IMG/VR virus record: IMGVR_UViG_3300050119_000051
Span: 1 to 58,840 of that record
Reading direction: 5' to 3' (one strand)
DNA length: 58,840 bases
Source of the DNA: a virus
Lineage: Duplodnaviria > Caudoviricetes
Below the pieces are notes generated by a model. That model searched no databases and was not told the origin of the DNA. It saw only the letters and a list, made by a program, of their open reading frames with translations. Below, in pieces: positions 15,550-43,915 of this stretch (its first letter is position 1; every line of letters begins with the position of its first letter). A program made the translations under genes and the position numbers.

Positions 15550-16815
15550 ATGAGCGAAATGTCAGAAGAGGCCCGCGCCAAGGCGAAAGACAAAGCCGAG
15601 CGTTTGGTTCGTTCAGACCCTCGCGCACGGGTAGACGCATCGGGGTACTCCCCCGAAGGCGCCATGGATGCAGATGTGCAGACCGGACCGCGTCCCATCT
15701 CCCGCCGCCAATTCCGTAGAGGCGGCAAGGTCGCAGGGGAAGCCTCGGCCGCACGCGCTGACCGCAAACCGCGGGCAAACGGTGGCCGAACCCTTACCGC
15801 TGATTCGCTCATCAACCGCGATGTCAAGGCGGCCAACGAGGAGCGCGACGGTACCAAGCACGTCGGCGGTATGAAACGCGGCGGCCGGGCTCACAAGACC
15901 ATGGGCGGCTTGGCGTTACCGAACTGGGCCGATGCGGTCTCGCGCAAGTCCGGAGGACGGACTGGGAAACTGATGGGCGGTGCGATGAGCCCGCAACAGC
16001 GCATGGGGTTACAGCAGCCACCGATGGCTGCGGGGGCGCCTCCCGTGGCGCAGGGCGCAATGATGCGCAAGGGCGGCGGCAAGGTCGAAGATCATGCGAC
16101 TGGCTGCCAGTGCGAGAAGTGCGGCGGTGGGCGGGTTGGGCGAAAAGACGGTGGCGCGATCAATGACGGTACGCGCCCGGTAGCTGGGCGGCTCGCTCGC
16201 AAAGGCGGAGGGCGCGCGAAGAAGGGCACTAACGTCAATATCATCATCTCGCAGCCGCCCGCACGTCCGCCGATGCCGCCTATGGGCGGTCCACCTCCAG
16301 GCGCGCCGCTTCCAGTAGGACTGCGCCAAGGCATGCCGCCACCGATGCCGCCAGCCGGCGCACCGCCTCCTGGAGCAGCGCCAGGCATGCCCCCAGGCGC
16401 CATGATGCCGCGGGCGACTGGCGGTCGCGCGATTGATAAGCCGCAGGCAGCAAAAAAAGGCGGTGGCACCAGTACGAGTACTGGCGGCGCGACAGCACAC
16501 CGAAATACTGGAGCCGCGACAGGCGGTGCGGTAACGGTGACTATTTCTGGATCAAGCAGCACAGACACTTCAACTGCGACATCAACTGGCGCCAAAGGCG
16601 GTGCTAAGGGAACTCCAAAGGGAGGTGCTGGTAAAGCTAAAGAACCGCCAAACACCATTAACCTTACTGTAAATTCTACGGGTAAAAGTGGCGACGCTAT
16701 TGATGCTGCTAAACCGAAGCCACGCGCTTTCGGCGGCCGCGCATATCCGATTGACGCCGGTGCTGGCAGCGGACTTGGCAGATTGGAGAAAGCCCAACGC
16801 GCGGCGCGGGGATGA
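15550..16815 (+). CDS. Low-complexity basic/Pro-rich head-associated protein with at least 11 xxxGG motifs
   Basis: FRRGG, RANGG, MKRGG, KTMGG, RKSGG, KLMGG, RKGGG x2, RKDGG, RATGG, RAFGG. Confidence 0.75.
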   Translation: MSEMSEEARAKAKDKAERLVRSDPRARVDASGYSPEGAMDADVQTGPRPISRRQFRRGGKVAGEASAARADRKPRANGGRTLTADSLINRDVKAANEERDGTKHVGGMKRGGRAHKTMGGLALPNWADAVSRKSGGRTGKLMGGAMSPQQRMGLQQPPMAAGAPPVAQGAMMRKGGGKVEDHATGCQCEKCGGGRVGRKDGGAINDGTRPVAGRLARKGGGRAKKGTNVNIIISQPPARPPMPPMGGPPPGAPLPVGLRQGMPPPMPPAGAPPPGAAPGMPPGAMMPRATGGRAIDKPQAAKKGGGTSTSTGGATAHRNTGAATGGAVTVTISGSSSTDTSTATSTGAKGGAKGTPKGGAGKAKEPPNTINLTVNSTGKSGDAIDAAKPKPRAFGGRAYPIDAGAGSGLGRLEKAQRAARG

Positions 16816-17018
16816 GTTTCACCGTCAGCAGTCGATTCGAGGCAGAGCTAAAAAAGCGCATCGACAACGAACTCATCCGTTTGCATGAAGAATTAGGGCT
16901 TGGAATGTCCGTGAAAGACTATGCCGACTACAAAAAATACACGGGACAGATCGCGGCTATGTCGAAAGTCCGCGACGAGTTCTGCGACGAAATCAATAAG
17001 TCAATAAACGAGGGATAG
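16812..17018 (+). CDS. Small helical head-module protein
   Basis: ATGA overlap; DYADYKKYTGQIAAM pattern seen next to phage GroES-like genes. Confidence 0.65.
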   Translation: MSFTVSSRFEAELKKRIDNELIRLHEELGLGMSVKDYADYKKYTGQIAAMSKVRDEFCDEINKSINEG

Positions 17019-17020
17019 TT

Positions 17021-17464
17021 ATGCCGGCTACAGCTATCAAACAGCGCGACAGAGCGGAATTCGATCCGAAGCAGGAGATTATCGACAAGATCGGCGATAT
17101 TTCAGCTGTCGAAATCGCTCAAAACGAAGTTCTGATCGCCATCTACCGGCGCCCCGAAAAGACTGCTGGCGGCATTGTGCTGCCATCCTCCAACTTGAAG
17201 GAGGATCAGTATCAGGGAAAGGTCGGACTGGTGCTGAAAATCGGCGCTGCCTGTCGTTTTGAGCGCGAAAATCCGAAGACGGGCGTCAGATATGGCATCC
17301 CGATCGCTATTTATGACTGGGTTGTCGTGCGCCCGAGCGATACATGGTCGCTGGAATTCAACGCACGCCCTGATGCGATGGCCCGCGAGGACTTTTTGTG
17401 GTGCCGACTCGTCTACGACGATCAGATTCGCATGAAAATTCCGTTACCACAGATGGTCTGGTGA
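17021..17464 (+). CDS. GroES/Cpn10-like co-chaperonin
   Basis: EVLI...EKTAGGIVLP mobile loop, GLVLKIG. Confidence 0.8.
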   Translation: MPATAIKQRDRAEFDPKQEIIDKIGDISAVEIAQNEVLIAIYRRPEKTAGGIVLPSSNLKEDQYQGKVGLVLKIGAACRFERENPKTGVRYGIPIAIYDWVVVRPSDTWSLEFNARPDAMAREDFLWCRLVYDDQIRMKIPLPQMVW

Positions 17465-17468
17465 ATTT

Positions 17469-19051: not shown

Positions 19052-19082
19052 ACAGCTGATAGAAGCAAGCGACGCGGTAATC

Positions 19083-19158
19083 GTTGGAGAAATGGGCGCC
19101 GTCCTACTTGAGTCTGTCACAGGCTAGGCGTAGGGTTCGCGCCTGAGCGTCTTCCAAT
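19083..19158 (+). other. Long interrupted RNA hairpin
   Basis: Nested pairings ttgga/tccaa, gggcgc/gcgcct, cctac/gtagg, agtctg/caggct. Confidence 0.5.
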
Positions 19159-19175
19159 CACTTAAGGAAATACCC

Positions 19176-19565: not shown

Positions 19566-19783
19566 TGACACGCCAGACGTGGGAAGAGGAACGGGACGCG
19601 CGCATTCTTGCGCGCGTCCTTTTAGTGCTTGAGGAAGTCTTTGAAATTCTGAAGCGCGCGTTTCCTCCTCCGCAATATCGGCCGACGACTGCGATTGTTG
19701 TCACGCCGGCCGCGCCGCGCGCGCCCGTTGTTCAACATGAGTCGCCGCTCTCACATCCGATGCCCTATCTGCCGCCGCGCTGA
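19565..19783 (+). CDS. Small protein sharing a PPx[FY]xPTT[GA]IxVTP motif with the upstream gene
   Basis: TAATG coupling; MTRQTWEEERDARILARVLLVLEEVFEILKRAFPPPQYRPTTAIVVTP. Confidence 0.6.
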   Translation: MTRQTWEEERDARILARVLLVLEEVFEILKRAFPPPQYRPTTAIVVTPAAPRAPVVQHESPLSHPMPYLPPR

Positions 19784-19810
19784 TCCTCCCTACTTTGCGT
19801 GCGGCATCCT

Positions 19811-20594: not shown

Positions 20595-20610
20595 GGCAGG
20601 AGCAACGTAA

Positions 20611-21525: not shown

Positions 21526-21537
21526 GGCAGATTCATC

Positions 21538-22138: not shown

Positions 22139-22471
22139 ATGAAATGGCACATGCGCAAACATCGAGAAACCGGCGGCGTGAACGAGGCCGAAGAGGACAT
22201 CAAGGACAAGCCGGAAGCCCGCACCAACGCGACCAAGGAAGACGAGGAAGCCGAAGAGATGAAGAAAGGCGGCCGCGCGAAACGTAAGCGCGGCGGCAAA
22301 CTCGTCGGCAAGGTTGAAGGCGAGAAAGGCGCGATGCACGCCGGCCGCAAACCGCGCAAGAGCGGCGGTCGATCGAGTTCCGATGCGACGCCGTTCACCA
22401 GTGCGCGCCGCGGCGATGATGCGCCGGGTCGCAAACTCATGAAGGGTGAGCTCGAGGGCGGCGAGGATTGA
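22139..22471 (+). CDS. Small charged protein with four xxxGG motifs
   Basis: RETGG, MKKGG, RKRGG, RKSGG; GGAG RBS. Confidence 0.7.
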   Translation: MKWHMRKHRETGGVNEAEEDIKDKPEARTNATKEDEEAEEMKKGGRAKRKRGGKLVGKVEGEKGAMHAGRKPRKSGGRSSSDATPFTSARRGDDAPGRKLMKGELEGGED

Positions 22472-22554: not shown

Positions 22555-23199
22555 ATGAGACGGATCATTTCAAGTGTAGGGCCACTCGCCGTAGCCGCAG
22601 CAAACAACATCGCGCTGTCTCAGACGCCCGCTGGCGCCGGCGCGCTAACGCTAAATGGATCGCTGGTCACTAGTGGTGTCGCAACCCTAGACAACCCGCG
22701 GCGCGTCCTGATCACGACCGCCGACACGACGCACCTATTCACGGTCACTGGCACCACGCCGACAGGCTCGGTAATCAGCGAGGTTGTGGGTCCCATCACG
22801 ACGTCGGCCTATACCGCGCAGGACTTCGCGACCATCACCTCTGTGACGATCAACGGCGCAGCGACGGCCGCTGTGACGGTGGGTACGAACGGGGTTGGCT
22901 CAACGCCTTGGGTGCGCACGGACGAGTGGGCGGATGCAGCTCTGTCGATCCAGTGCGATGTCGTCGGTACGGTGAACTACACCGTACAAGCGTCGAACGA
23001 TGATCCGAACGACCCGACCAATCCGGTACTGCCGAGCGCGATGACGTGGATCAGCACGAATGATCCAAACGGCGTTGCAGCGACTGTGGCGATTCTGACT
23101 AACTACCTGTTCGCTCCGCAGTACGTGCGCGCACTTTTGAATAGCGGCACAGGGTCTGTGTCGATGACCGTGACTCAGTACAACGTGGTGAATCGATGA
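22555..23199 (+). CDS. Virion structural protein
   Basis: Beta-rich; IALSQTP.GAGALTLNG, VNYTVQ.S.DDPN. Confidence 0.7.
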   Translation: MRRIISSVGPLAVAAANNIALSQTPAGAGALTLNGSLVTSGVATLDNPRRVLITTADTTHLFTVTGTTPTGSVISEVVGPITTSAYTAQDFATITSVTINGAATAAVTVGTNGVGSTPWVRTDEWADAALSIQCDVVGTVNYTVQASNDDPNDPTNPVLPSAMTWISTNDPNGVAATVAILTNYLFAPQYVRALLNSGTGSVSMTVTQYNVVNR

Positions 23200-26054
23200 T
23201 GAAAAATATACTGATTTGGCTGGCGCTGCTGGCTCCAGGACTGGTGCTGGCGCAGCCCGCCAACACCTATGTTCCTGGCCCCTCTCCCTACGCGCCTTCT
23301 GGCACGCCGTCGAACGGCCAGTGCCTAGTCTGGAGCTCGACCGCAGGGCCGAACTCGTCAGGAGCCTGGATCAATGCCGCGTGCGGGGGCGGTAGCGGCA
23401 TCACGGCGCTGACTGGTGTGGTGACTGGAACTGGGCCTGGTAGCACGCCTACGTCGTTTGGGTCTGGCGCGACTGCGGCGCTCCCGGCCGGCGCTCTGCC
23501 TTCCGGCGTGACGACCACAGCCGGCGGCGTGCCGACAGGCAATGCCGACACGGCTACGCTTACTAACAAAACTCAAAGCTACGCGAACAACACGTTCATA
23601 GGCTTCGGCCAGATGATTCCCTGCACGGGGACATTCGCGACCGATACGGCGCTCCTGGCTGCTGCTACCGCGATCGGCGGCAACATCACGCTTACTGGCA
23701 ACTGCGTGGTCAACGCGACCACGGTTATCAATTCCAGCACCCTCCTTAACGGTAACGGTTTCAAGATCACAGCGGCTGCTGCTGCAAACTGGTCAGGCAG
23801 TGTTATCAGAGCTGCATTCAATGCAGCGGACGGCGCCACTAACGTCACGATTGAAAATACAACGTGGGACTGGACCGGCGCTCCGGCCAGCACTCACATC
23901 CTGAATTTCGACGACCCTCCGGCGACGTTCTCCAAGATATCAATCTTAAACAATACTGCGCTGGTGGCTCCTGGGGACTTCGTTGCTCTGGTGAATGTGA
24001 CGGATGCCACGATCACCGGCAACAAGGTCGGCGACGCCACTCATGGATGCGCGGGTGCCTGTTTTGATCTCTGGGGCATTGATACCAACGTCGTGGAGAC
24101 CGGCAATTCCGCCTCAGTGGCCTCTGAGGGCATCGGCTATATCTATACCGGCTTCTTCGATTCCTCCCATCCGAGCAATGCGACCAATATCAATATCTCG
24201 CATAACTTCGCCTATCTGATCGACTCCTCAGGCGGGGTGCCGATCGGCATTTATATTCAAGGCTACGAGACGTCGTGCAGCTTCGGTACGACCAACGATG
24301 CCTACAACACGGTCGCGGACAATCAGATTGTGCTCACGGCCGGTGTCAACGGTCGCCCGATCTGGGTCAACTCCTGCGCCTATTACACCGATGTTCACGA
24401 CAACATCATCACCGGCGATAACGTTACTGCGCAGACTGCTCCGGCTATCGAAGTCAACGGATTATCCGGCGCCTCGATAGGCATTCAGATCCACGACAAC
24501 ATAGGCTATGGCTTCCTTGCCCCAACGACGGGATCGGATGCCGGGGATTTCGTCAATAAGGGCTCCAACGGCTCTATCATCAATAACACGTGCTTTAGCT
24601 GCGGCGCGCTGCTGGTCGGAACTACAGGGGTGCAGTCGAGCACCCGTATCTACGGCAATGACAATGGCACCGGTATTGACACCTTTGTTACCCCGGCTAC
24701 CTTCAGCGCCGCCGCGATACTCAACGGCCCGACTTCTGGTACTGGACTCGACGCCTACGCGCTAGCCTATCTGGCAGGCGGCCATCCGGTAGCGGCTTCT
24801 ACTCTGTCATCGACCAGCGCCCCTACCGTGAATGGGGTCGCTGCCCCGGTTAATCTGTTTAGCTGGGGCATTCCTGTCGGCATTCCGCCGTCCGGCTTCT
24901 TCGCGAACAACGGCGTCTATATCGTAGGCCAAGCCCCCGCTTCTAGCGCCACCGTGACATTTGGCGCGACCAGCGGCAGCACGTCGATGACATTCAGCGC
25001 TGGCACGCCGTTCGCCAACGGTGCAGCCGACATCGGGCGCGTCTTGACGGTTCTCGATACCGTCTCGGTCACGGCAACGAGCGCATCGCCTGCCGTGTTC
25101 ACCGGTGACACGCTGCCCAACGGTACGATCATCACTAACATCGGTGGCACGCCGCCCACCGGGTTCTCTGCAGGGACGTTCTACTACGTCGTCAACACGT
25201 CTGGAAACACGTTCCAACTATCCGCGACGCCAGGTGGCACGGCCATCAATTCGTCGAGCACCGGAACATCGGTCACGGTAGCCTCTTACAAGTTCGGTAC
25301 TTGCACGGCAGCGGTCAGTACAACCGTCTGCACGGCGACGATCAGCGGCGGCACGCTATCAACTGCAGGCGCCTGGGCCAACAATGTCATTTGGCTCTCC
25401 GGCAGTCCGACCACGAACATCAGCGCATTCTCTGTGCCGCTGCCTGCAGCGGTCTTGGCTCATGTTTATTTTAATCTTCCGGTCAATGTCATTTCGGCGG
25501 CCACCGCAGCGGGCATCTATAACGCCACCTGCGCGACCTCGACGTTCTGCATTGTCACCAATAACGCGCTAGCCAGCGGCTTGCCTACGATACCGGGAAG
25601 CCCAACGATCTTTGCAACCACGGGAACGGGCGCATTTTCTCAAAGCACTTCAGCGCTTAACATTCTCACCCTGTCTATCCCCGCTAATAGCTTGGGAGCG
25701 AATGGGTCTCTTGTTTCCGATATCTTTGCAAATCGTGATAGCAATGCAAACACCGTTGCATTACAGACTTTCTACGGAGGGGTGCAAACCGCTCAATTCT
25801 CGGTGGTAAGCGTAGTGTGGTATGGGACGCACCGGACTATAAGGAATTTGGGAGCGACAAATTCTCAAGTGCTGTACTGCGCGACGTGCGTGGGTGCGAT
25901 GACTGACGCTACTACGAATAACAATACGAGTAGTACTCTCACGGTTGACAGCACGCAAGCTCAGAACTTCGTCGTAAAGGGCGCATCGACTACGGCAGCA
26001 ACCGACTGGATTTTCACCCTTGGCGGCACGATTCAAGCGAACTACGCGCCATGA
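23196..26054 (+). CDS. Tailspike/fibre-like protein (beta-helix) with Sec signal peptide
   Basis: MMKNILIWLALLAPGLVLA|QP; fibre motifs TPSNGQCLVW, GITALTG, TLTNKT; Asn/Ile-rich beta-helix repeats; YYVVN...TFQLSATPGG tail module. Confidence 0.75.
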   Translation: MMKNILIWLALLAPGLVLAQPANTYVPGPSPYAPSGTPSNGQCLVWSSTAGPNSSGAWINAACGGGSGITALTGVVTGTGPGSTPTSFGSGATAALPAGALPSGVTTTAGGVPTGNADTATLTNKTQSYANNTFIGFGQMIPCTGTFATDTALLAAATAIGGNITLTGNCVVNATTVINSSTLLNGNGFKITAAAAANWSGSVIRAAFNAADGATNVTIENTTWDWTGAPASTHILNFDDPPATFSKISILNNTALVAPGDFVALVNVTDATITGNKVGDATHGCAGACFDLWGIDTNVVETGNSASVASEGIGYIYTGFFDSSHPSNATNINISHNFAYLIDSSGGVPIGIYIQGYETSCSFGTTNDAYNTVADNQIVLTAGVNGRPIWVNSCAYYTDVHDNIITGDNVTAQTAPAIEVNGLSGASIGIQIHDNIGYGFLAPTTGSDAGDFVNKGSNGSIINNTCFSCGALLVGTTGVQSSTRIYGNDNGTGIDTFVTPATFSAAAILNGPTSGTGLDAYALAYLAGGHPVAASTLSSTSAPTVNGVAAPVNLFSWGIPVGIPPSGFFANNGVYIVGQAPASSATVTFGATSGSTSMTFSAGTPFANGAADIGRVLTVLDTVSVTATSASPAVFTGDTLPNGTIITNIGGTPPTGFSAGTFYYVVNTSGNTFQLSATPGGTAINSSSTGTSVTVASYKFGTCTAAVSTTVCTATISGGTLSTAGAWANNVIWLSGSPTTNISAFSVPLPAAVLAHVYFNLPVNVISAATAAGIYNATCATSTFCIVTNNALASGLPTIPGSPTIFATTGTGAFSQSTSALNILTLSIPANSLGANGSLVSDIFANRDSNANTVALQTFYGGVQTAQFSVVSVVWYGTHRTIRNLGATNSQVLYCATCVGAMTDATTNNNTSSTLTVDSTQAQNFVVKGASTTAATDWIFTLGGTIQANYAP

Positions 26055-26103
26055 TATGCACTGGATGAGGAAGCGAAGCATGCAATTACGAGAGGTCTTG
26101 TTT

Positions 26104-27153
26104 ATGAAACGAGTATTGCTGCTCACGCTCCTATTGCCGCTGACCTGCTTGGCGCAGAGTCCTGGCGTCGGGTTGACGTCGATAACCGCCGCTAGCAATG
26201 TCGTCGGGAACGAACTGATATTCGCTTGGCAACAAGGGAGTGGTGGCAGTGGGGTTAATGCCTGTATCAGCGGGTGGTGCCCGATCACATTCACGCCCGC
26301 TCTGCTGAACACCTATTTCTCTGGTGGTGGTGGTACTCCGGCGAATCCCACCGCAAAGGTCGGAACGTCCGCCGTCAACGGCTCTGCTACCACGTACATG
26401 CGTTCGGATGCCGCGCCGCCTATTGACCTGACGTTCTCGCCGACGTGGACCGGCACGCATACATTTAACGGCACGATCGCAGGAACTGCGCTCTCGGCCT
26501 ACCTAGCTGCTCCTCCTGCGATAGGCGGCACAACGCCAGCGGCTGGCGCCTTCTCAAGTCTGAAGGATACCGGCATTAGCGGTTCGACGCAGTGTTTGCA
26601 TGCGAGTACCGCAGGTATCATATCTGGAACTGGCTCGGATTGCGGCAGCGGCGGTTCTAGCGCATTCAGCACGCTCACCAGTGGCACGAATACGTCGGCT
26701 GCAATGATAGTCGGAAGCGGCGCATCTTTGGCGGCTACCGGATCCGGAAGCATCGCCGCCACGAGTCTCAGCGGCATGACCGCCCCAAGTACGAGTGGGG
26801 TATTAGGTTATCTGGGGCTGCCGGAACCACGCGGAGTGCTTACCGGAGCGGTGACTATCGCGTTGACCGATAACAGCAACGTGCTGCATTTCAATTGCAC
26901 GTCGGCCTGCACGCAAAACATCCCTGCAAATTCAGGAGCTGGCAGCGTCGCGTTCCCGGTCGGTGCGGTGCTAATATTCGACAATGACTGCACCGCGACC
27001 ACAGCTCTCACTGTGACCCTCAGCAGCGATACGATGTACTTAAGTCCACTGCCATCGGTCACCGGTACGCGAAGCGTATCGATCTGCGGGGAGATGTTCG
27101 CGCGCAAAGAAACCTCTACGACTTGGAAAGTGACTGGTACTGGAGTCACATGA
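26104..27153 (+). CDS. Tail-fibre-like protein with Sec signal peptide
   Basis: MKRVLLLTLLLPLTCLA|QS; fibre repeats NGSATTYMRSDAAP and AIGGTTPAAGAF; C-terminal IPANS..VAFPVG...TGTRS...TTWKVTG domain. Confidence 0.75.
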   Translation: MKRVLLLTLLLPLTCLAQSPGVGLTSITAASNVVGNELIFAWQQGSGGSGVNACISGWCPITFTPALLNTYFSGGGGTPANPTAKVGTSAVNGSATTYMRSDAAPPIDLTFSPTWTGTHTFNGTIAGTALSAYLAAPPAIGGTTPAAGAFSSLKDTGISGSTQCLHASTAGIISGTGSDCGSGGSSAFSTLTSGTNTSAAMIVGSGASLAATGSGSIAATSLSGMTAPSTSGVLGYLGLPEPRGVLTGAVTIALTDNSNVLHFNCTSACTQNIPANSGAGSVAFPVGAVLIFDNDCTATTALTVTLSSDTMYLSPLPSVTGTRSVSICGEMFARKETSTTWKVTGTGVT

Positions 27154-35036: not shown

Positions 35037-35948
35037 ATGGATCCGATAACCATAGCTCTCCACACTGCGCGCAAACGGCGCGATGATGGCGGCTCTGTTG
35101 AGACCACACGGACCGTCGGCGCGAAATTCCACGCCGGGCCGATTCACAGCGGGGTGGCGGGGCGTACCGATCATCTGCCGATCACGGTACAGTCAGGGTC
35201 ATATGTCCTGCCAGCCGATATCGTGAGTGCCGGCGGCTCGGGCAATACGCTCGCCGGCTTTAAAGTCCTGCGCCGAACCTTCGGCGGCGAGCCGTACGGC
35301 GCTGGCAGCGCGCCCTACGGCCAGAACAAGGGCGTCTATGGACTGCCGGTCACATATGCCCGCGGCGGCCGCGCCCGAGCCGCCGGCATCCTGTTCCTGT
35401 CGCCAGACAAGGAAGTGCTCCTGATGCGCCGGACAGAGGACGATGGCCACAAGGGCGAATGGGCCTTCCCGGCCGGTGGCATCAAAAAGGACGAAACACC
35501 TGATGCGGCTGCCAAGCGTGAAACCGGCGAGGAAACCGGGTACAAACACGAGGGCGGACTGTCGCCTTTCATGCACAGCGAGGATAAAAATCTAGACTTT
35601 ACAACGTACTTAGCTCACTCTCAGCGCTTCGATCCGAAGCTGAATCATGAGCATGATGGAGCCAGATGGGTGACTCTAGATGAGGCCAAAAAACTACAGC
35701 TGCATCCGGGGGTCAAGGCTGCGCTCGAGAAACTCGCCACGCGTGCTGGTAAGGCCCACGGCGGTGAATCATCGGGCGTGCCGATCGTCGCGGCCGGCGG
35801 CGAATGGGTTATCAGCCCGGAGCATGTGCGACGCGTCGGTAACGGCGACATCGATATGGGACACCGAGTGCTCGATGCGTTCGTACACCGGGTCCGCAAG
35901 GAACTGATCGGGACGCTCAGCAAGCTGCCAGGACCGCGCCGTGACTGA
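35037..35948 (+). CDS. Virion-module protein with an inserted Nudix hydrolase domain
   Basis: Nudix box GGIKKDETPDAAAKRETGEETG between YARGG and KAHGG; flanks GRTDHLP...GSYVLPADIVS and VPIVAAGGEWVI. Confidence 0.8.
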   Translation: MDPITIALHTARKRRDDGGSVETTRTVGAKFHAGPIHSGVAGRTDHLPITVQSGSYVLPADIVSAGGSGNTLAGFKVLRRTFGGEPYGAGSAPYGQNKGVYGLPVTYARGGRARAAGILFLSPDKEVLLMRRTEDDGHKGEWAFPAGGIKKDETPDAAAKRETGEETGYKHEGGLSPFMHSEDKNLDFTTYLAHSQRFDPKLNHEHDGARWVTLDEAKKLQLHPGVKAALEKLATRAGKAHGGESSGVPIVAAGGEWVISPEHVRRVGNGDIDMGHRVLDAFVHRVRKELIGTLSKLPGPRRD

Positions 35949-36120
35949 CTCACCTTACACAGAAAACATGTTCGACATCGCCGTCCATCTGGCGACCAAG
36001 ATCATGGATGCACCGGACGTCTGGACGGCACACGACTTGACGTACTTGATCGAACGCGAACTCGACAAGTACATCGAGGAAGGTAGCTTGCGGTTTGCAA
36101 AACCGGTGAATCGGCGATGA
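35941..36120 (+). CDS. Hypothetical protein (59 aa, not in ORF track)
   Basis: MTDSPYTENMFDIAVHLATKIMDAPDVW...; overlaps both neighbours. Confidence 0.45.
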   Translation: MTDSPYTENMFDIAVHLATKIMDAPDVWTAHDLTYLIERELDKYIEEGSLRFAKPVNRR

Positions 36121-36650
36121 CTCAGACCGCTGTAGCGCGCACAGAGCAATCGTCACGCGCGCCCGAACCGGCGCTCCAAATCCGGCTTGCCACGCCAGCA
36201 GACATGAATGAAGTGATGAAGCTGGCGGTTACTGCGTGTAAAGAGAATGCTTTTCTAGAGGCATCTGCGGAAATGTTGGCTCGCGAGATTTGGCCGGCTC
36301 TCGTACAAGACCACGGGCTTATGGCTTTGATAGGTCCTCCAGGCGGGGCGATTGAGGGATTGGTTTTGCTGCGAATAGGAACCATCTGGTATAGCAAAGA
36401 GCAAGTTTTGGAGGAAAAGGCAATATTCGTCTATCCAGAATTCAGATCGGCGAAGGGCGGCCGCGCGAAGAAACTTTGCGACTTCAGTAAAAAAGTGGCT
36501 GATACATTGGGAATGAAACTTCTGATCGGAGTGCTTTCTGCGCATCGGACTGAAGGCAAGGTTGCAATGTATACGAGACAGTTCGGTCCACCGATGGGAG
36601 CTTTTTGGCTCTACGGCACGACTACTGGCGATAAACAGGTAGTAGCATGA
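36117..36650 (+). CDS. GNAT-family acetyltransferase-like protein
   Basis: IRLATPAD, IFVYPEFRS; typical position before ejection genes. Confidence 0.7.
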   Translation: MTQTAVARTEQSSRAPEPALQIRLATPADMNEVMKLAVTACKENAFLEASAEMLAREIWPALVQDHGLMALIGPPGGAIEGLVLLRIGTIWYSKEQVLEEKAIFVYPEFRSAKGGRAKKLCDFSKKVADTLGMKLLIGVLSAHRTEGKVAMYTRQFGPPMGAFWLYGTTTGDKQVVA

Positions 36651-36683: not shown

Positions 36684-39600
36684 GTGTCGGGCAAACAAAG
36701 TACTAGCACGTCAGGGGTATCAATCCCACCGGCTGTGCTCGCGCAATATCAATCGGTGAACGCGGCCGCCAATCAAACCGCGCAAACCCCATTCCAACAA
36801 TACAATGGCGAATTTGTCGCCCCTGTCAACGATGAACAGTACGCCGGTGTCGCCGGCACCAACTCTGCCGCGACTGAGGCGCAGCCTTTCTATTCTGCGG
36901 CCACTGCCGGATTAGGCGCTGCGCAGGCCGGGACGGCCCCCTATAACGCGGAAGCTGCGGGCACGCTCGGCGCTTCGCAGGCTGGTACGCAACCATACAA
37001 CGCGATGGCAGCGAATACACTCAGCGGCGCTCAGGGTGCAACGGCACCAGTCAACGCGGCTGCCGAGGCTGGAACCGCCGCGAGCGCCGCGCCGTTGTCT
37101 GGTTCTCAGATCGAACAATATCTGTCGCCATATTTGAGTACGGTTTTGGGTTCTGAGGCTGGCGTCCTCAACCAAAATAATCAGCAGCAGCAGGCCGGTC
37201 AACTAGGGGACGCGATCACATCTGGCGCCTTTGGCGGTGACCGCACTGGAATTGCTGCCGCGAATCTGGAGGAGCAGCAAAATCTAGCGAACTCGAATAT
37301 TTACTCCAACATCCTGAACACCGGCTATCAGTCGGCCCTGAGCACGGCGCAGGGGCAGCAGCAGATCGGCCTCGCCGGTGCGCAGCAACTCGCCAGTATC
37401 GGGCAGACGGCCTATGGCGAAGGCGCGAATACAGCATCAGAGGCCGCGGCGCTCGGCCAGACAGCTTACGGCGAGGGTGCGAATACAGCATCAGAGGCCG
37501 CGGCGCTCGGCCAGACAGCTTACGGCGAGGGTGCCAACACGGCATCAGGATTGGCGGCCTTGGGAACTGGGGCGCAAACCGCTGGGCTCCAAGGCGCGCA
37601 GGCACAGATTGGCGCCGGTACGGTGGAGCAACAGACGCAGCAGGCCGAGGACACCGCGCAATACAATCAGTTTCTACAGCAGCAGTCCTATCCGTTTCAA
37701 GTCGATCAGTTCCTCGCGAATATTGCCGAGGGCACTGGCGCGCTGTCTGGATCGACGACTACCACGACGCAGCCTGGAGGATTCTTCAGCGACCGTCGCC
37801 TGAAGCGTGATATAAAAAAGATCGGCGAGACGTTCGATCACCAAGACGTCGTCACTTACAAGATGGGCGACGACGACCGCACACGCATCGGATTGATCGC
37901 GCAGGACGTTGAGAAGAAGCATCCGGACGCGGTCGGCTTGGCAGCCGGATTTAAGGTGGTAGACTACGGTAAGGCCACGAAAGATGCGGCGAAGCGCGGC
38001 AAGTTCGCTGAAGGGGGTCTTGCTGGCGCGGGCGCTCCTATAATAGATCCTGCAACGCTTCGGGCATCAGATGAGGACATGGGCGCGCATATCAAGGCGA
38101 CCCACCCTATGGGGGCGAGGATGACCGGCGGTGGGACTCGGGTTCACCTAAACGATGGTTCGACTTGGGAGCAGCGCGGGGGTCGTCGTGGCGATTGGCA
38201 TCGCGGGCACTTTGACCGCGGCGGTTACGCGACCGGAGGATTGTCGCCAGGCAGGAGCTCGCCAGCTGGCTCCATTGCCGCTCAAGCTGGTCTGGGCGCC
38301 CCGTCGTCGCCGTCCGGATCGATCGCCGCGCAGGCTGGATTAGGTGCCACGTCGTCGCCCCTCCCAGGATCCATCACCGCACAGCTCGCGCCGACTACGG
38401 GTAGCGCGCCAGCTAGCGCACCAAGCAGTGTGCCATCCCCAGTGCCGATACCAGCAGGGGCGATACCGAGCTCCACTCACGTTCCTGAGACGCCAGGACC
38501 GGCATACACGACGCCCCCAGCCTATGCGATGCCTGGGGCGACGCCGGCATTCGCGTCGCCTGGATCAACCTTTGCGACAACGCCAGGTTTTTGGTCACCG
38601 GATCTCTCTGGTGGATTTGCTCATGGCGGGGATGTTAGGCATCGCGATGCCGCCAATAATGATCATTTCTACGAAGGCGGTGTGGTGCCGTTCAGACGTG
38701 CGCGAGCTGTGGGCGGTACTGACGACGGGCTCGCCGGAGCCTTGCAGGCGCAGCAGGCCATGTACTCTGGGATGCCTGGAGGGGGCGCACAGCGGCAGAT
38801 CAATCAATCGGGCACCGGTGGTGGTAGTCACTCGCTTCCAGTGTCCAATGCGCCAGCCGTGGCTCCGCAGTCGGGTATCAGTCAGGTCAATAGCGGGATC
38901 AATACTGTCAATAACGGCTACAAGCTGTACGGCAACATGACGAAATCGGCGGCTACGCCCTCGGGTGGCGTGGTGCCGGCTCAGGCAGTCGCCCAGCCTA
39001 CGGGACTACAGGCGGCTGGCTTGCAGCCGTCCGGGGCAATCACTGCTGGTGCGCCTGCCGATTCGGCCACCGAAGGCGCACTGGCTACGGCCGCGCCCAT
39101 GGACACGGCTGTCGATGCCGGAGCTACTGCAGCTGGCGAGGGCGCTGCGGCCGATGCAGCAGGAACAGCAGCCACGTCCGCTGCTGCCGGGGCCGCAGGA
39201 ACCGCGGCGGCTGGCGCTGCGACCGACGCTGCTGCGACCGCAGCGGCAGAAGCGGCAGCGGCACTTGCGGCCGAATACGCGGTGGCGGACGTGGGCGCTT
39301 CGGCGATCCTATTGGCCAAGCGGGGCGGCGCGATACGGCGCAAATATGATGCGGGCGGTACGCCCTATCTCGAATCCAGCTTGGACAGTAGTGGCAACCT
39401 AAACATCCCAGAGGACCCTAACACGTCCACGCTGAAAGCCGCCCCAGGCGCCGGTAAGCTGCCGACCGGATTACAGACCATGATGAAGATGGGGAATCCT
39501 ACCGATTGGAGTGACATGGCCGGATCCATGTTTTCTAATCAGGCACTGGCGACTGGCGGCGTCGCTGGGCGGCGCGGCTATGATGATGGCGGGACGCCAA

Positions 39601-41531
39601 CGGCTGACGACACGGTTCAGGTGCCAGACCAAACTGTCGGCGTAGCGGCCTCAGATGCTTCTGCGTCGGCTCCAAGCGATGGCGGCGTAGCTGGCGGGGC
39701 AGTGCCTGCGGCGTCGGCAGAAGATACGCAGAGCGGCCTCGGTGCCATTTGGAACAAGGTCAAGGGCAGCGCACTCGCGAAGCCGGAAAACTGGGTACCA
39801 CTGCTCTCAGCCATCAGTGCGATGGGCACGGCGAAGACGGTGCACCCGGGCGTTGCGTTGGCGGCGGGGCTCGGCGCTGGCGCTCAGGCGTATCAAGGCG
39901 AACAGACGGCGCTCGCTCAGCAGCAAAGAACGCAGGCGGAAACGGGACTGATTGGGGCGCGGGCGACCGGCGCTGGCCTCCAGAATCAGATGACGCAGTT
40001 GGGAATAAACGACATACGTAATCCGCCGCCAACGTCCTTGCCAGATCCGGTGCGGCCAACTGGGATGACACCCAGCGATCCGACCGATCCGCAGGAACTG
40101 GCATTCCAGAAGTTCGCGCCCCTGCCGACCGCGCGCCCAGATTATGTGACTAATCGCATCAATGCGTACAACATGGCGAACAAGCCAGAAGTCGCCAAGA
40201 GCATCGGCGATCAGTATGACCAGCAGATAGCCGGTGCCAATCAAACGCGAACCCTGGGCGCAAGTTCGGCCTATCTCAGCTTTGCCAATGCCGCCAACGC
40301 GCCTTCTGGACAAGCGTTGTCGATGGTGGCAAAGCTCAATCCGCAAAAGGCCGCACAGATACAGCAATCCGGTGCTGATCCAGCAACACAGGATCAGCAG
40401 GCCAGAGACTGGGCCGGGGCAATGGGACTGCAAGCTCATTCGTGGTCTGGCAGACCAACGACGATGCAGAACGGCGTACTGATTGACCAACCTACATCAT
40501 CCCCAGTGGTCGGCTCGAATCAGCTCCTGACCGGGCTCACGCCTGAGGATAAACAGGCAGCGTACACCGAAGCGATGCAACCGATAACGCTCGACAACGG
40601 GCTGCCGGGGCGCAATTACCAGAAGTTTGGCATGACGGCACCAGAGCAGTACATCATGGCGAAGGATAAGGCCGCTAGGATGATCGGCGGGACGCCCAGT
40701 GGCGGCATGGTACCAGCGCAGGGTGGTGCTCCACCAACGACGACTCTGCGAGCCGTACCATCGCCAGCGGCCGGGCCAGCGGCCGCGCCTGCGGCGCGCA
40801 AACTCCCCCGGGCCGCCCCTGCTGCGGTTCCAGCTGCTGCGACTGTTTCCGCACAAACGCCAGCGGTAGATCAGCCGACTGCCGACCCTTATCTCAGTAA
40901 GGCGCTCGCCGACCCAAAGTTCAATTTGCAGCCGCTGCCGAAGGTAGTCGATCAGACTACAAGACAAGCTGCGCTTACACAGCAAGGCATCAACCAGAAT
41001 TCGGCCGCAAAGCTCAAAAATGACGCGGCGGGTATCACTGATTCGGCATCAATGGCACTGCAATACTTGACTTCGGCTAGATCGATCATGAATTCGAAAG
41101 GCGCAACCGTAGGCATGTATGGCGGATTACTGACGCAAGCCAGCCGAGTTCTTGGTGGCGGCCCGCAATCTACAAATTATCAGGAGTTAGCGAAGTACTT
41201 GGGGAATGCAGGAGTGCAAGCCGGGAGAGGAAATTTTCCGAACGCTACTCAGCAAGAGATGGGATTGCAACTCACCGAACTTAGCCCGCATGAAAAGATG
41301 AACGCTGACACGATTAATGATCTGTTGGCGACCAATATTCGTGCTACGAAATACACGCTGGCATCCGCCGATCGAGCACCCCAGTATGTCGCCGCTGGGA
41401 AAGACCCGCAGGCTTTCCAGCAGTGGAATCAGGCGCACTACCCGCGCGAGAAAGTGGTGAACGCATCACAGACGGCGAGCGGGCCAGGTGGCCAAAAGAT
41501 GTACGAAATTAACGGCAAGTGGGTGCAATGA
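36684..41531 (+). CDS. Large DNA ejection/pilot polyprotein with internal peptidase-S74-like domain and ten xxxGG motifs
   Basis: Q/A/G-rich pilot N-terminus (GAFGGDR); FFSDRRLKRDIKKIG...GLIAQDVEK..PDAV...VDY; FAEGG, FDRGG, YATGG, FAHGG, FYEGG, RAVGG, AKRGG, YDAGG, LATGG, YDDGG. Confidence 0.75.
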   Translation: MSGKQSTSTSGVSIPPAVLAQYQSVNAAANQTAQTPFQQYNGEFVAPVNDEQYAGVAGTNSAATEAQPFYSAATAGLGAAQAGTAPYNAEAAGTLGASQAGTQPYNAMAANTLSGAQGATAPVNAAAEAGTAASAAPLSGSQIEQYLSPYLSTVLGSEAGVLNQNNQQQQAGQLGDAITSGAFGGDRTGIAAANLEEQQNLANSNIYSNILNTGYQSALSTAQGQQQIGLAGAQQLASIGQTAYGEGANTASEAAALGQTAYGEGANTASEAAALGQTAYGEGANTASGLAALGTGAQTAGLQGAQAQIGAGTVEQQTQQAEDTAQYNQFLQQQSYPFQVDQFLANIAEGTGALSGSTTTTTQPGGFFSDRRLKRDIKKIGETFDHQDVVTYKMGDDDRTRIGLIAQDVEKKHPDAVGLAAGFKVVDYGKATKDAAKRGKFAEGGLAGAGAPIIDPATLRASDEDMGAHIKATHPMGARMTGGGTRVHLNDGSTWEQRGGRRGDWHRGHFDRGGYATGGLSPGRSSPAGSIAAQAGLGAPSSPSGSIAAQAGLGATSSPLPGSITAQLAPTTGSAPASAPSSVPSPVPIPAGAIPSSTHVPETPGPAYTTPPAYAMPGATPAFASPGSTFATTPGFWSPDLSGGFAHGGDVRHRDAANNDHFYEGGVVPFRRARAVGGTDDGLAGALQAQQAMYSGMPGGGAQRQINQSGTGGGSHSLPVSNAPAVAPQSGISQVNSGINTVNNGYKLYGNMTKSAATPSGGVVPAQAVAQPTGLQAAGLQPSGAITAGAPADSATEGALATAAPMDTAVDAGATAAGEGAAADAAGTAATSAAAGAAGTAAAGAATDAAATAAAEAAAALAAEYAVADVGASAILLAKRGGAIRRKYDAGGTPYLESSLDSSGNLNIPEDPNTSTLKAAPGAGKLPTGLQTMMKMGNPTDWSDMAGSMFSNQALATGGVAGRRGYDDGGTPTADDTVQVPDQTVGVAASDASASAPSDGGVAGGAVPAASAEDTQSGLGAIWNKVKGSALAKPENWVPLLSAISAMGTAKTVHPGVALAAGLGAGAQAYQGEQTALAQQQRTQAETGLIGARATGAGLQNQMTQLGINDIRNPPPTSLPDPVRPTGMTPSDPTDPQELAFQKFAPLPTARPDYVTNRINAYNMANKPEVAKSIGDQYDQQIAGANQTRTLGASSAYLSFANAANAPSGQALSMVAKLNPQKAAQIQQSGADPATQDQQARDWAGAMGLQAHSWSGRPTTMQNGVLIDQPTSSPVVGSNQLLTGLTPEDKQAAYTEAMQPITLDNGLPGRNYQKFGMTAPEQYIMAKDKAARMIGGTPSGGMVPAQGGAPPTTTLRAVPSPAAGPAAAPAARKLPRAAPAAVPAAATVSAQTPAVDQPTADPYLSKALADPKFNLQPLPKVVDQTTRQAALTQQGINQNSAAKLKNDAAGITDSASMALQYLTSARSIMNSKGATVGMYGGLLTQASRVLGGGPQSTNYQELAKYLGNAGVQAGRGNFPNATQQEMGLQLTELSPHEKMNADTINDLLATNIRATKYTLASADRAPQYVAAGKDPQAFQQWNQAHYPREKVVNASQTASGPGGQKMYEINGKWVQ
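36921..37082 (+). repeat. 3 x 54-bp (18-aa) coding repeat, arm 1
   Basis: AQAGTAPYNAEAAGTLGA / SQAGTQPYNAMAANTLSG / AQGATAPVNAAAEAGTAA. Confidence 0.75.
37401..37562 (+). repeat. 3 x 54-bp (18-aa) coding repeat, arm 2
   Basis: GQTAYGEGANTASEAAAL x2 + GQTAYGEGANTASGLAAL. Confidence 0.9.
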
Positions 41532-43915
41532 GCGACGGCTCTCTACCTGCTGGGTTTACGGTTGATTCTGCTGACGATGATTCGCCGGGCTCCGACACGC
41601 TGCCCAAGGGTTTCAAAATAGACCCAGGAAGCGACGACGATGCGCCGATGATACGCAGTGCGCCGCAAATGCCTACCAATGCGCAGTTGACGGACCCGAA
41701 CGCCTCGAACGAGGACATCGGAGCGATGGCGCGCCAGACTGGCGACGCACTTGCCGCCGGAAATGGCCCCGCAGAAACTGGTCCCGGTATTGTCGATGCC
41801 GCTGACACCGCGGTCGCGCTCGGCTCTGGTGCCCTTGTCGGTGGTGTCGGTGGTGGCGTAGCCGGGCTCGCGGCGCGCATCAAGGCATCGTTCACTGGCG
41901 ATAAGACTCCGGATGAAGCCGCCGCTGACGCCCATAAATGGGTAGATCAGTACGTGTACAAACCGCAAACCGAAGGCGGTAAAGCGGCCGTCAACGCTGT
42001 CGGTAACGCGATAAATTACGTCACCGCACCGTACAAGGCCGAAGAACAATCTGCGGAGACGGCGCTTGGGCCAACTGCTGGCGGACTCCTACATACCGTT
42101 GTAGGCACCGCAGGCGATGTGCTGAATGCAACGCCAGCTATTGGCGCTGCGAGCAGCGCGTTTGACCTAGCCAAGAGTGGGATCGCTGGAGAGGCGTCGA
42201 GCTTAAAAGTTCCGGGCGACTCCAGCATGCCTGCATCGGGTACGCCTCAGAGCGCCGAAAGCGTACTTGCGAATGCGGCCGCGCAGTCCAAAGGAAATAT
42301 GGGAGCCGCGGTAGCCGCTCCTTCACTGGAAGGCGTCTCGCCTGGATTGAAGCAGGCGATTGCCAGTGCGACGAATCCGAATATGGAAGCAGCGACTCGA
42401 CAGATCAACGCCGATACGCTGCCGATGCCTGATGGCATGAGCCCGGCGCCGCTGCGTAAGGGACAGGCGATGCGCGATGATCAACAGATTTCGGACGAAA
42501 AGAACATGCGGGCTGACCCGGACACGCAGGGATTACTAGCGAAATCAATCACCGATCAGAACGACACGATGGGCGCAAGTATGGGCGAGATCCGCCAACG
42601 GGCGACGCCCGATATAGTTCAGCGCTCCACGGCCGAACAGGGCCAAGCGAATGTCGATGCGATCAAGACACAGGATAACGCTGCGGTGACTGGCACTAGG
42701 CAGAAATACAAGGCGCTCTCCAATGCCGCCGGCGGCGTAATGCCGATCGATACAGGCGCGACTATTGCCGGTATCAAAAGCGCCTTGTCTGAAAAACTTC
42801 TCGTGCGCACGGCAGCGAATGATCCGGCCATCTCTGAGGTCATGGATAGTTTATCGTCCGGACAGCCAATGCCGTTTGAATCATTTCATAACGCACTCAG
42901 TAATCTTGCAGAAGTGCAGCGCAATAAAGGATCGCCAGCGGCCGCTGCAACCGTCGTACGAAATGCATTGGAAAGCATGCCTCTGACGCCTGAGTTCGCC
43001 AATCTGAAGGGATTGAGAGACGTGGCATCGTCTGCGGCGAAGGCGCGGTTCGACACCATCGAACAGAACCCAGCTTATGACGCGGCGGTCAACGACAACG
43101 TACCGAAAACCCAGAACGGTCTGCACGTGATCGGTGTGCCGTCCCCACTTGCTGACACGTTCATGGAGCGCTATTACCTAGGAAACGGTCCCAGTGCGTC
43201 TCGCGCCTATGTGAGTCGCATCCAGAGCATCATGCAGGATAACCCGGATTTTTCTCAGTCCATCGAAGCGTCTGCGCTCAACAAATTACGCGATGCCGCG
43301 AAACTCGATCAGTACGATAGCGGTAATTTCGCGAGCGCCAGTTTTCGCAATGCGCACAATGCGCTGGCGCCGAAAGCTGATGTTCTGGTGAGTCCTCAGA
43401 CCGCAGATAATTTGCGTCGGCTCAGACAGTATTCCGACGATGTGAGCTATGAAGGCAAAGCCTCCTCGGTGAATCGTCCGAACACAGCGCTGACGCTGCA
43501 GCGCCACGGGGCAATGTATCCGCCCCCAGATACCATGGGTGCCCAGTTGGCAGATATGGGAACGGACCTTGTCGCAGCTCATGCCGGAGCTGTCGGTTAC
43601 GCGGCCAAGAAGATCGGTTCGGCATGGTGGAAAGGCAAGCAGGCCGAAAAATTTACTCAGTCGATTAAAGACGCGAAGTTTAAATTCGCTCAGGACGCCA
43701 CTGCGCCCGGCGCCGGCATTGATACGCCAGCAGCTCCGATCACGGCCCGCGCCGCTGGCGGACGCGTGGATCACAAGGCGCTGGCCGATCAGTTATTCAC
43801 GCGCTGGAAACAGGCGCAAAAAGAATCGGATAAAAACACGGAGCCATTGTTAAAGTTTCCGGACGCGACGATTATAAAAGCGCTTCGCATAGCCCAGGCG
43901 CAGCCACTGACATGA
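41528..43915 (+). CDS. Internal virion / ejection protein
   Basis: LPAGFTVD/LPKGFKID N-terminal repeats; YKPQTEGGK; C-terminal module after RAAGGRV. Confidence 0.7.
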   Translation: MSDGSLPAGFTVDSADDDSPGSDTLPKGFKIDPGSDDDAPMIRSAPQMPTNAQLTDPNASNEDIGAMARQTGDALAAGNGPAETGPGIVDAADTAVALGSGALVGGVGGGVAGLAARIKASFTGDKTPDEAAADAHKWVDQYVYKPQTEGGKAAVNAVGNAINYVTAPYKAEEQSAETALGPTAGGLLHTVVGTAGDVLNATPAIGAASSAFDLAKSGIAGEASSLKVPGDSSMPASGTPQSAESVLANAAAQSKGNMGAAVAAPSLEGVSPGLKQAIASATNPNMEAATRQINADTLPMPDGMSPAPLRKGQAMRDDQQISDEKNMRADPDTQGLLAKSITDQNDTMGASMGEIRQRATPDIVQRSTAEQGQANVDAIKTQDNAAVTGTRQKYKALSNAAGGVMPIDTGATIAGIKSALSEKLLVRTAANDPAISEVMDSLSSGQPMPFESFHNALSNLAEVQRNKGSPAAAATVVRNALESMPLTPEFANLKGLRDVASSAAKARFDTIEQNPAYDAAVNDNVPKTQNGLHVIGVPSPLADTFMERYYLGNGPSASRAYVSRIQSIMQDNPDFSQSIEASALNKLRDAAKLDQYDSGNFASASFRNAHNALAPKADVLVSPQTADNLRRLRQYSDDVSYEGKASSVNRPNTALTLQRHGAMYPPPDTMGAQLADMGTDLVAAHAGAVGYAAKKIGSAWWKGKQAEKFTQSIKDAKFKFAQDATAPGAGIDTPAAPITARAAGGRVDHKALADQLFTRWKQAQKESDKNTEPLLKFPDATIIKALRIAQAQPLT

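Follow-up and report, generated by a model that had tools for sequence, protein, structure and literature searches.

A conserved Gly-Gly motif in inferred virion-internal proteins of an uncultured podophage-like virus is a candidate capsid-loading or tethering tag

The phage studied here raises the question of why one short motif with a Gly-Gly (GG) core recurs in a few of its late proteins and is not enriched in the others. The phage is known from IMGVR_UViG_3300050119_000051, a complete virus record of 58,840 bases, and the window is this whole stretch of DNA. An earlier reading made from the letters alone (the sequence-only reading) had noted copies of [FYRKM]-x-x-G-G in five open reading frames (ORFs), here named by their start positions 15550, 22139, 35037, 36684 and 41519 (Table 1), and had suggested either docking inside the procapsid or cleavage into separately ejected peptides. 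When each GG run with one of these residues at position -3 was counted once, 11 distinct sites were found in 15550-16815, 4 in 22139-22471, 6 in 35037-35948, 11 in 36684-41531 and 1 in 41519-43915, which shows that the earlier counts (at least 11, 4, 3, 10 and 1) were right or slightly low. Enrichment was measured with overlapping matches against 2000 whole-protein shuffles for each of 41 window ORFs. ORF 15550 has 15 matches compared to 2.8 expected, 36684 has 13 compared to 3.1, and none of the 2000 shuffles was as high in either case; 35037 has 6 compared to 1.1 (p=0.001) and 22139 has 4 compared to 0.8 (p=0.0045). The motif is thus about 4-5 times over the shuffle expectation in these four ORFs. 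In contrast, none of the other 36 ORFs was enriched at p<0.05 (lowest 0.087), Gly-rich tail proteins included. The fifth ORF, 41519, has 1 match compared to 0.9 expected (p=0.60). Hence the claim of five tagged proteins stands as enrichment in four, and the single copy of 41519 is at expectation in the window yet invariant in its family. The description of the five as unrelated was overstated, since 22139 is a paralogue of 15550 and aligns with amino acids (aa) 14-81 of it (BLASTP E=6e-7).

The five ORFs are Gly-rich (8.6-17.8%), and the motif could be suspected to be a chance or compositional artefact of Gly/Arg-rich low-complexity sequence. Shuffling within blocks of 15 or 30 residues, which preserves local Gly/Arg richness, gave the same enrichment outcome, which shows that this richness is not the cause. 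An explanation by composition alone, which the sequence-only reading had itself raised, was therefore rejected by both whole-protein and block shuffles. In addition, ORFs 23196, 26020 and 21538 are Gly-rich (all at least 11.7% Gly) without being enriched, and the sites are conserved in homologues; we regard an artefact as extremely improbable. A tighter pattern chosen post hoc, [RKFYH][AKRD]xGG, gave 22 matches in the five ORFs (3247 aa) and a single match in the remaining 36 (11093 aa). In the metagenomic phage MW202675.1, which is the closest GenBank record and the best tblastn match of the portal (65% identity), the homologue of 15550 is the only enriched protein (10 matches compared to 1.7 expected, 0 of 1000 shuffles as high), and the other 21 coding sequences have p>=0.059. 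The homologues of 15550 carry 10-13 copies each in nine of nine IMG/VR loci, with 0 of 300 shuffles as high in each.

The residues around GG are also constrained. At 1756 GG sites from 120 members of the 15550 family, R or K is found at -3 in 47%, K or R at -2 in 42%, R or K at +1 in 36%, and V, A, L or T at +2 in 62%. The consensus of the tag is a basic or aromatic residue, two variable positions, GG, one variable position and V, I or A, and R-A-x-G-G is frequent. The sites are encoded by 10 different Gly-Gly codon pairs with varied flanks, which suggests that selection acts on the protein and not on the DNA. A DNA-level recombination signal was ruled out, as codon pairs and flanks differ between sites. 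A limited literature search found no description of a Gly-Gly or diglycine motif in phage internal virion or ejection proteins, one pentapeptide form of the motif led to nothing relevant, and the titles and abstracts found in it on the virion of HTVC023P indicated no such motif.

A contrast between the motif and the protein that bears it was seen in the 41519 family. When 15 members (18-50% identity) were aligned, 11 columns were invariant (10 if the initiator Met is left out), and nine of these belong to the final 55 residues. Columns of the tag score 0.64 for conservation, compared to 0.31 elsewhere in the protein, and the most conserved stretch of 58 aa starts at aa 736. A 60-position profile of the tag, run against 1.84 billion proteins, matched 1463 cluster representatives. 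In the 150 matches listed, the tag ends no more than 5 aa from the C-terminus in 149 cases and starts with [RK]AxGG in 141; of their 105 bodies above 300 aa in length, only 14 can still be recognised as similar to the body of the window's 41519. The tag is kept much better than the protein carrying it, which points to a conserved binding partner. In the AlphaFold2 model of 41519, a helical core at aa 263-640 (pLDDT 63-92 per 10-residue block) is followed by a disordered stretch at aa 642-747, which contains the GG, and then by helices at aa 749-775 and 779-790. The model gave no Foldseek match at E<=0.001.

A similar terminal element is found on other proteins encoded in relatives of this phage. 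In relatives the portal gene either directly precedes the homologue of 15550 (the GG-array gene), as in the window, or is separated from it by 1-7 large ORFs, and in 26 of the 61 loci having both genes the interval holds cargo ORFs of at least 200 aa. The intervening ORFs encode ART-PolyVal, LPD23, PBECR5, InPase, M15, SLT, amidase and lysozyme domains (Pfam matches in 16 of 34 scanned), with several effector or LPD-type domains in one polypeptide (for example M15+ART or PBECR5+ART+LPD23), whereas the window's own tagged proteins have only Nudix and S74. C-terminal tags follow the order body, aromatic/basic-x-x-GG-x-V/I, and an amphipathic helix of the type x-[KR]-A-L-x-h-h-x-[KRS]; N-terminal tags show the mirrored order of helix, a few basic residues, GG and body. 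When two fixed patterns, one for the GG core and one for the helix, were searched for together within one terminal 55 aa, the bipartite element was found in 21 of the 32 different cargo proteins with a length of 200 aa or more, compared to 2 of 470 other ORFs of the same loci. The patterns were applied unchanged to an independent set obtained with a different query (loci L014-L035), in which the element was present in 13 of 14 members of the 41519 family (C-terminal), in 7 of 19 members of the 35037 family (N-terminal; here variants that look similar escape the pattern) and in 0 of 168 proteins of all other classes, giving 20 of 33 homologues of 35037 and 41519 compared to 0 of 168 others. Among more distant relatives, Caulobacter phage RW has neither tag nor array, and Pelagibacter phage HTVC027P has weak, partial forms. 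Some tagged cargo proteins of relatives also carry poly(Gly/Asp), sometimes Gly/Asp/Trp, tails of 40-70 residues (L009:4430-5563, L006:7808-9682, L008:1-1584 and L115:7455-9929), which are strongly acidic counterparts of the basic GG-array.

The motif also marks the edges of domains. In 16 cargo proteins of relatives having Pfam domains, 6 of 76 GG sites fall inside a domain compared to 12.3 expected (p=0.028), and 17 of 76 lie within 30 aa outside a domain edge compared to 6.6 expected (p=2e-4). GG motifs flank ART, PBECR5 and InPase on both sides in relatives, as they flank Nudix in 35037. Together with two AlphaFold2 models that place GG in low-confidence linkers beside helices, these counts bear out the earlier statement that the motif sits at domain boundaries.

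Protein 35037 belongs to a family of about 499 relatives of 99-315 aa, in which the central loop of a carrier core hosts Nudix (in the window), InPase or other domains. Its six sites comprise the N-terminal tag, one in a conserved loop of the core, one on each side of Nudix and two inside Nudix (aa 112-228), and the last two are probably unrelated to the tag. The N-terminal consensus of the family is ...QAxAAALxxARxxxAxGG, and in the AlphaFold2 model of a 180-aa member (pLDDT 75; loop 78-120 disordered), a helix at residues 2-16 is followed by GG in a low-pLDDT stretch. The core is a pseudo-duplicated two-lobed domain with invariant Gly-Arg-Thr-Asp-His, Gly-Gly-Glu and Gly-His-x-x-Leu-Asp segments and may be an unrecognised enzyme or metal site. 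It is present in five of five class-b genomes tested and in MW202675.1, is weak in two of three distant relatives and is absent from the third. Compared with solved folds, the model of the core gave nothing at E<=0.001 in the Foldseek PDB search, and the best score of a wide VIA-align search was Z 3.1.

The giant protein 36684 was aligned with 17 homologues (18 sequences in total), and six of its motif sites are kept in 11-18 of the 18 (Table 1), whereas the copies at aa 482-513 and 643-677 lie within insertions common to few or no relatives. PHROG 6121 (virion structural protein) matches aa 109-434 of the giant. Peptidase S74 domains have a Ser...Lys catalytic pair at the domain start and are normally C-terminal in the precursor, from which they are released after folding. 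In the giant, the S74 domain is placed in the middle of the protein, with about 1190 residues downstream of it, and is conserved in 18 of 18 aligned giants; in its N-terminal segment Ser-Asp and Leu-Lys are kept in 18 of 18, and two positions between them vary. Self-cleavage by this domain would detach a 368-aa N-terminal fibre-like fragment. Most giants begin with a Met-Gly-Gly-Lys-Ser/Thr-rich stretch, and one may speculate that these N-termini are modified.

A motif at boundaries and in linkers could be a passive flexible joint. Glycine hinges placed between modules and ahead of terminal helices would then help these long proteins to unfold for their passage through the tail channel, and the motif would have been dispersed by shuffling of domains and common descent, with no reader protein. 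The cargo is indeed modular and shuffled (the same InPase module occurs free, fused or inserted), and 22139 and 15550 share ancestry. Ordinary linkers drift freely, whereas here non-glycine residues at -3/-2 and +2 are conserved, the tag is invariant across families whose bodies have diverged beyond recognition, and no DNA-level repeat is present. We consider a mere hinge quite improbable.

Placement at boundaries is also what proteolytic maturation would predict. The sequence-only reading had linked the motif to C39 and ubiquitin-like proteases, and this link found no support: scans of 53 ORFs by Pfam and of 26 ORFs by PHROGs detected none of the C39, ubiquitin-type or prohead protease families, and no C39 peptidase or ABC exporter gene is present in the window. 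Its remark that no prohead protease is recognisable agrees with these scans and needs one qualification, as the self-cleaving S74 domain is present at aa 369-417 of 36684; besides this cis-acting domain, the same scans revealed no protease family. The profiles of the head-module proteins 18425 and 19974 reached best E values of 0.26 and 0.2 against PDB sequences, and they show no invariant Ser/Cys-His set.

The GG motifs could still be maturation cleavage sites for a phage protease of an unrecognised family or for a host protease. Such an adenovirus-like scheme would trim docking helices, free effector modules such as Nudix, excise S74, and chop 15550 and 22139 into basic DNA-bound peptides. 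It is consistent with GG lying between terminal helix and body in both orientations and bracketing inserted or fused domains, with the first GG site of the giant following S74 in all 18 homologues, and with the conserved flanks on either side of GG. Adenovirus provides a precedent, as described in PMC4246237. The 35037 core, with its invariant His, Asp, Glu and Thr and no structural match, would be a speculative candidate for the enzyme. The lack of a protease family other than S74 and the absence of a PDB match or catalytic set in 18425 and 19974 argue against cleavage, as does the absence of cysteine from both the giant and 41519. Moreover, Pro immediately follows GG in some otherwise homologous C-terminal tags, and Pro at this position is awkward for cleavage directly after GG. 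Array copies 5 residues apart would yield pentapeptides, and conservation spans the whole 55-aa tag and not merely the site. Cleavage at GG is possible and, on this evidence, doubtful. Its fullest form, in which a tailed phage clade matures its internal proteins as adenovirus does, with the 35037 core as candidate GG-directed protease that cuts 15550 and 22139, frees effectors and trims helices, appears unlikely.

Protein 15550 has 68 K+R compared to 30 D+E, and its ESM Atlas model (pLDDT 0.41, pTM 0.13) predicts it to be disordered. Its matches in the ESM Atlas are unnamed viral clusters only, with scores of 0.86 or below. Scoring of 8000 candidates gave at least 1521 relatives of the family at E<=1e-3; among the 120 matches listed, all are unnamed or hypothetical and none contains a Pfam family. 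Likewise, 15550 and 22139 have no Pfam family at E<=0.01, and no match to the Pfam model of the KGG stress-protein repeat. In alignments of 9 and 117 family members, the GG pairs and their basic neighbours form invariant columns and the spacer lengths vary, with copies 5-8 residues apart. A His-x3-Cys-x-Cys-x2-Cys knuckle (H182, C186, C188 and C191), which contains the only three cysteines of 15550, is conserved in at least 90% of the 117 sequences and is missing from some distant members in one family alignment. Three GG blocks are retained in 24 distinct homologous sequences of 22139.

These features would suit a nucleic-acid-binding element of the RGG or AT-hook-like type, in which 15550 and 22139 are protamine-like head proteins that condense DNA, and the effectors ride on the DNA via hook and basic helix and exit together with it. 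The high isoelectric point (pI 11.1) and predicted disorder of 15550, the basic residues at -3, -2 and +1 and the knuckle are all in line with this, and DNA contacts are described for P1 DarA-Hdf (PMC12810830) and for the cyanophage A4 pre-ejectosome (PMC12002296). However, many cargo copies have acidic or neutral flanks (Y-A-D-G-G and Y-D-D-G-G types), the giant (pI 5.4) and 41519 (pI 5.1) are acidic overall, and charge alone requires neither an invariant GG nor V/I at +2. DNA binding as the main function of the motif is therefore improbable in our view.

Taken together, the enrichment, conservation and boundary placement uphold the earlier proposal of a conserved short linear signal, confined to putatively virion-internal proteins. 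We tentatively favour, at just short of an even chance, that the GG motif is a tag for loading proteins into the capsid or tethering them there, and that the disordered 15550 protein is a multivalent partner. The tag would mark proteins bound for the head interior by a GG core together with a mostly basic amphipathic helix at the very N- or C-terminus, and the core would be repeated at module joints within giant multi-domain proteins. Ejection or effector proteins would be loaded into the procapsid by this tag and then tethered there via a conserved partner, for which the portal region, the inner shell surface and the packaged DNA are candidates. The disordered, basic 15550 protein (10-15 core copies) and its paralogue 22139 would be multivalent threads or hubs within this network of interactions. 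Docking is favoured by a tag that outlasts its bearer, by terminal placement, by the tagging of unrelated enzymes and by the precedents in T4 and P1.

Several points weigh against the loading tag. The binding partner is hypothetical, and the virion-internal location of the tagged proteins was inferred from gene order, domain content and analogy. The invariant R-A-x-G-G of the 41519 tag looks like a specific recognition site and could equally fit a protease site. The mirrored order of N- and C-terminal tags means that GG is always between helix and cargo, as a cleavable or hinge boundary predicts, and this is odd for a single directional epitope. With a spacing of 5-8 residues, the array copies cannot all hold a bulky receptor simultaneously. 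With regard to the counts, the helix pattern was written after the class-b cargo set had been viewed, many of the counted proteins are mutually homologous, so that the k-of-n values overstate the number of independent events, and the ORFs and starts of relatives were called mechanically (longest + strand ORFs, greedy choice), which matters for N-terminal tags.

One possible docking place for the tags could be the C-terminal tail of the portal, as judged from its sequence. This tail (14700-15056, and in relatives) consists of a long Gln/Ala-rich helix followed by a conserved ...N-R-D-x-D-R...A-I-x-L-A-x-x-V-I... helix, and this C-terminal amphipathic helix resembles the helix of the cargo tag. 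A complex prediction that paired the full-length portal with the first 130 aa of the GG-array protein, both given as alignments, scored 0.00 with a mark of 0.32, which speaks neither for nor against binding.

Table 1. Positions of the GG-bearing proteins, their motifs and other late genes in the window
Feature	Position	Strand	Description
Large terminase	10313	+	Pfam/PHROG scans
Portal protein	12681..15056	+	Pfam SU10_portal E=1.4e-8; GG-array gene immediately downstream
GG-array protein, 421 aa	15550..16815	+	pI 11.1, 18% Gly, 11 distinct copies, predicted disordered
His-x3-Cys-x-Cys-x2-Cys knuckle in GG-array	16093..16122	+	H182, C186, C188, C191
GroES-like protein	17021-17464	+	Pfam GroES/Cpn10 21.6 bits vs cutoff 21.1; PHROG co-chaperonin GroES E=1.4e-5
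Scaffold-like protein	17469	+	C-terminal helix-turn-helix segment kept in relatives
Conserved head-module proteins without assigned function	18425 and 19974	+	ORF/domain scans
Major capsid protein	20611	+	Pfam/PHROG scans
Mini GG-array, 110 aa, basic	22139..22471	+	4 motif copies; paralogue of the 15550 N-terminal part (BLASTP match over aa 15-79)
SU10-type adaptors (two)	29031, 31040	+	Pfam/PHROG scans
Structural protein, 678 aa	32543	+	Pfam/PHROG scans
Three-protein block	35037 (Nudix), 36684 (1615 aa), 41519 (798 aa)	+	All large
Carrier internal protein	35037..35948	+	Two-lobed core, Nudix hydrolase inserted in central loop; NUDIX E=3.4e-21, aa 112-228
N-terminal tag of carrier	35046..35093	+	Amphipathic helix, then R-R-D-D-G-G
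GG motif Y-A-R-G-G	35355..35369	+	Directly before Nudix insert
GG motif K-A-H-G-G	35751..35765	+	After Nudix insert (end aa 228)
Giant internal protein, 1615 aa	36684..41531	+	N-terminal fibre-like part, internal S74, GG-joined Gly/Ala-rich modules
Peptidase_S74 intramolecular-chaperone (self-cleaving) domain	37788..37934 (aa 369-417)	+	Pfam 35.3 bits vs gathering cutoff 22
GG motif right after S74	38004..38024	+	GG (aa 444) kept in 18/18
Giant GG motif, aa 515-521	38226..38246	+	GG (aa 518) kept in 14/18
Giant GG motif pair, aa 878-894	39315..39365	+	GG (aa 881, 891) kept in 16/18 each
Giant GG motif pair, aa 955-972	39546..39599	+	GG aa 958 kept in 11/18, aa 969 in 15/18
All-helical internal protein, 798 aa	41519..43915	+	AlphaFold2 model
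C-terminal tag module	43748..43912	+	R-A-x-G-G-[KR]-V, then two helices; most conserved part of the family

Judged from its gene content, the late region is podophage-like, and it lies entirely on the + strand (Table 1). More distant relatives, with about 30% portal identity, are HTVC023P-type pelagiphages, Caulobacter phages and Roseobacter phages. The GroES/Cpn10-like gene is located between the GG-array and scaffold genes; similar genes were found as 72 ORFs across 86 anchored loci and are annotated as co-chaperonin in MW202675.1, Caulobacter phage RW, HTVC027P and CRP-901. A loop segment of the window's GroES-like protein, K-T-A-G-G-I-V-L-P, fits [FYRKM]xxGG, and its GG is part of the GroES fold and not a tag. 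Mimicry of GroES by the tag was dropped as an explanation, as the hydrophobic run after GG is missing in most tag copies. In the tail region, three consecutive large ORFs on the + strand (23196-26054, 26020-27153 and 27123-29024) are Gly/Thr/Ala-rich, have hydrophobic N-termini like signal peptides and gave no Pfam or PHROG match. An HNH/endonuclease VII-like gene (31835-32539, +; PHROG 1035 E=1e-19) lies between the second adaptor and the 678-aa structural gene, and relatives have comparable insertions at different positions. Between the carrier and giant genes lies a GNAT-like acetyltransferase gene (36117-36650, +; PHROG acetyltransferase E=1.1e-4), which has no tag and is kept as 19 distinct ORFs across loci L014-L035. 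The early region encodes a serine recombinase (7439-8125, +; Resolvase E=9e-27) and a VapE-like primase/helicase (4942-7170, +), and given these two genes the phage may be temperate or plasmid-like.

Phages that inject enzymes or anti-defence effectors must load them into the capsid, and few loading signals are known (T4 capsid targeting sequence, P1 DarB). The window points to a sequence-defined, portable tag in a large clade of uncultured podophages, carried by very diverse polyvalent effectors. If the loading tag is true, it would provide a simple rule for predicting injected proteins in metagenomic phages, a handle for packaging foreign proteins and a viral case of a repeat-bearing disordered scaffold; if the motif is instead a cleavage code, a protease family not yet known in tailed phages would be implied. 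Several known systems offer comparisons. The short terminal cargo-loading peptides of encapsulins and the repeated short Gly-containing motifs of CsoS2, a disordered carboxysome scaffold, attach to the inside of an icosahedral shell and bring in cargo. The GG-array may act in a similar way; the systems share no homology, and the shells there are protein compartments and not virions. The double-glycine leader of C39 substrates, an N-terminal segment of about 15-30 aa ending in GG, has a geometry that fits the N-terminal tags of the 35037 family, whereas most GG copies are internal or C-terminal. In adenovirus, the protease recognises consensus sites in several capsid and core precursors that are unrelated to one another and cuts there, with a Met-Arg-Gly-Gly substrate and IVGL|G quoted in PMC4246237. 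The likeness is a Gly-Gly-containing consensus on internal virion proteins that are otherwise unrelated, some of them very basic and bound to DNA (PMC4246237). However, adenovirus infects eukaryotes and packages a known cysteine protease, whereas none was found here, and the specificity-like position of the phage motif is one residue further from GG.

Podophage ejection proteins are described as forming a stack at or close to the portal and as being ejected (PMC12002296). The block of 35037, 36684 and 41519 resembles T7 gp14/15/16 and the cyanophage A4 pre-ejectosome in that small, giant and about 800-aa internal proteins are encoded together after the tail genes, although no sequence or fold match to solved ejection proteins was found for the 35037 core or 41519, and a VIA-align score of Z 2.5 for the A4 chain is noise. 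For polyvalent proteins (Iyer et al. 2017, PMC5512222), capsid packaging was predicted from a portal-adjacent context, and embedded zincin-like peptidases were proposed for processing. The tagged proteins of relatives similarly carry ART-PolyVal, LPD23, PBECR5, InPase and peptidoglycan hydrolases and are encoded beside the portal. In contrast, no zincin-like peptidase was found in the Pfam and PHROG scans of the window, and the domains on the window's own tagged proteins are limited to Nudix and S74; the main text of PMC5512222 describes no GG/helix tag and does not contain the words "linker" and "glycine".

The closest functional parallels are found in T4 and P1. The capsid targeting sequence (CTS) of T4 is removed by the prohead protease. 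It shares no sequence similarity with the GG tag, is N-terminal only and acts via the scaffolding core, whereas the GG tag is N-terminal (35037), C-terminal (41519, 149 of 150 matches listed) or internal (the giant). In addition, the GG tag combines a GG core with a helix, belongs to a podovirus-type phage without a recognisable prohead protease and is accompanied by a multi-copy disordered protein. The P1 system likewise differs, as P1 is a myovirus with a prohead protease and its signal is unrelated in sequence to the GG tag; no homology to DarA, Hdf or DarB was seen in the Pfam and PHROG scans of the window. The likeness to P1 is that DarB, a very large anti-restriction protein with several domains, has a short N-terminal loading signal, its first 30 residues being sufficient to package a reporter (PMC9024508), and that small partners line the inner capsid, with DarA-Hdf located on the inner capsid surface in contact with DNA (PMC12810830). 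T4 internal proteins are described as diverse defence proteins with only the CTS in common (PMC3012670), and the CTS directs encapsidation (PMC3012670; PMC9024508, citing Mullaney and Black). As in T4, a short peptide is common here to otherwise unrelated proteins, on 21 of 32 compared to 2 of 470 in one set and on 20 of 33 compared to 0 of 168 in the other, and these proteins are probably packaged inside the head.

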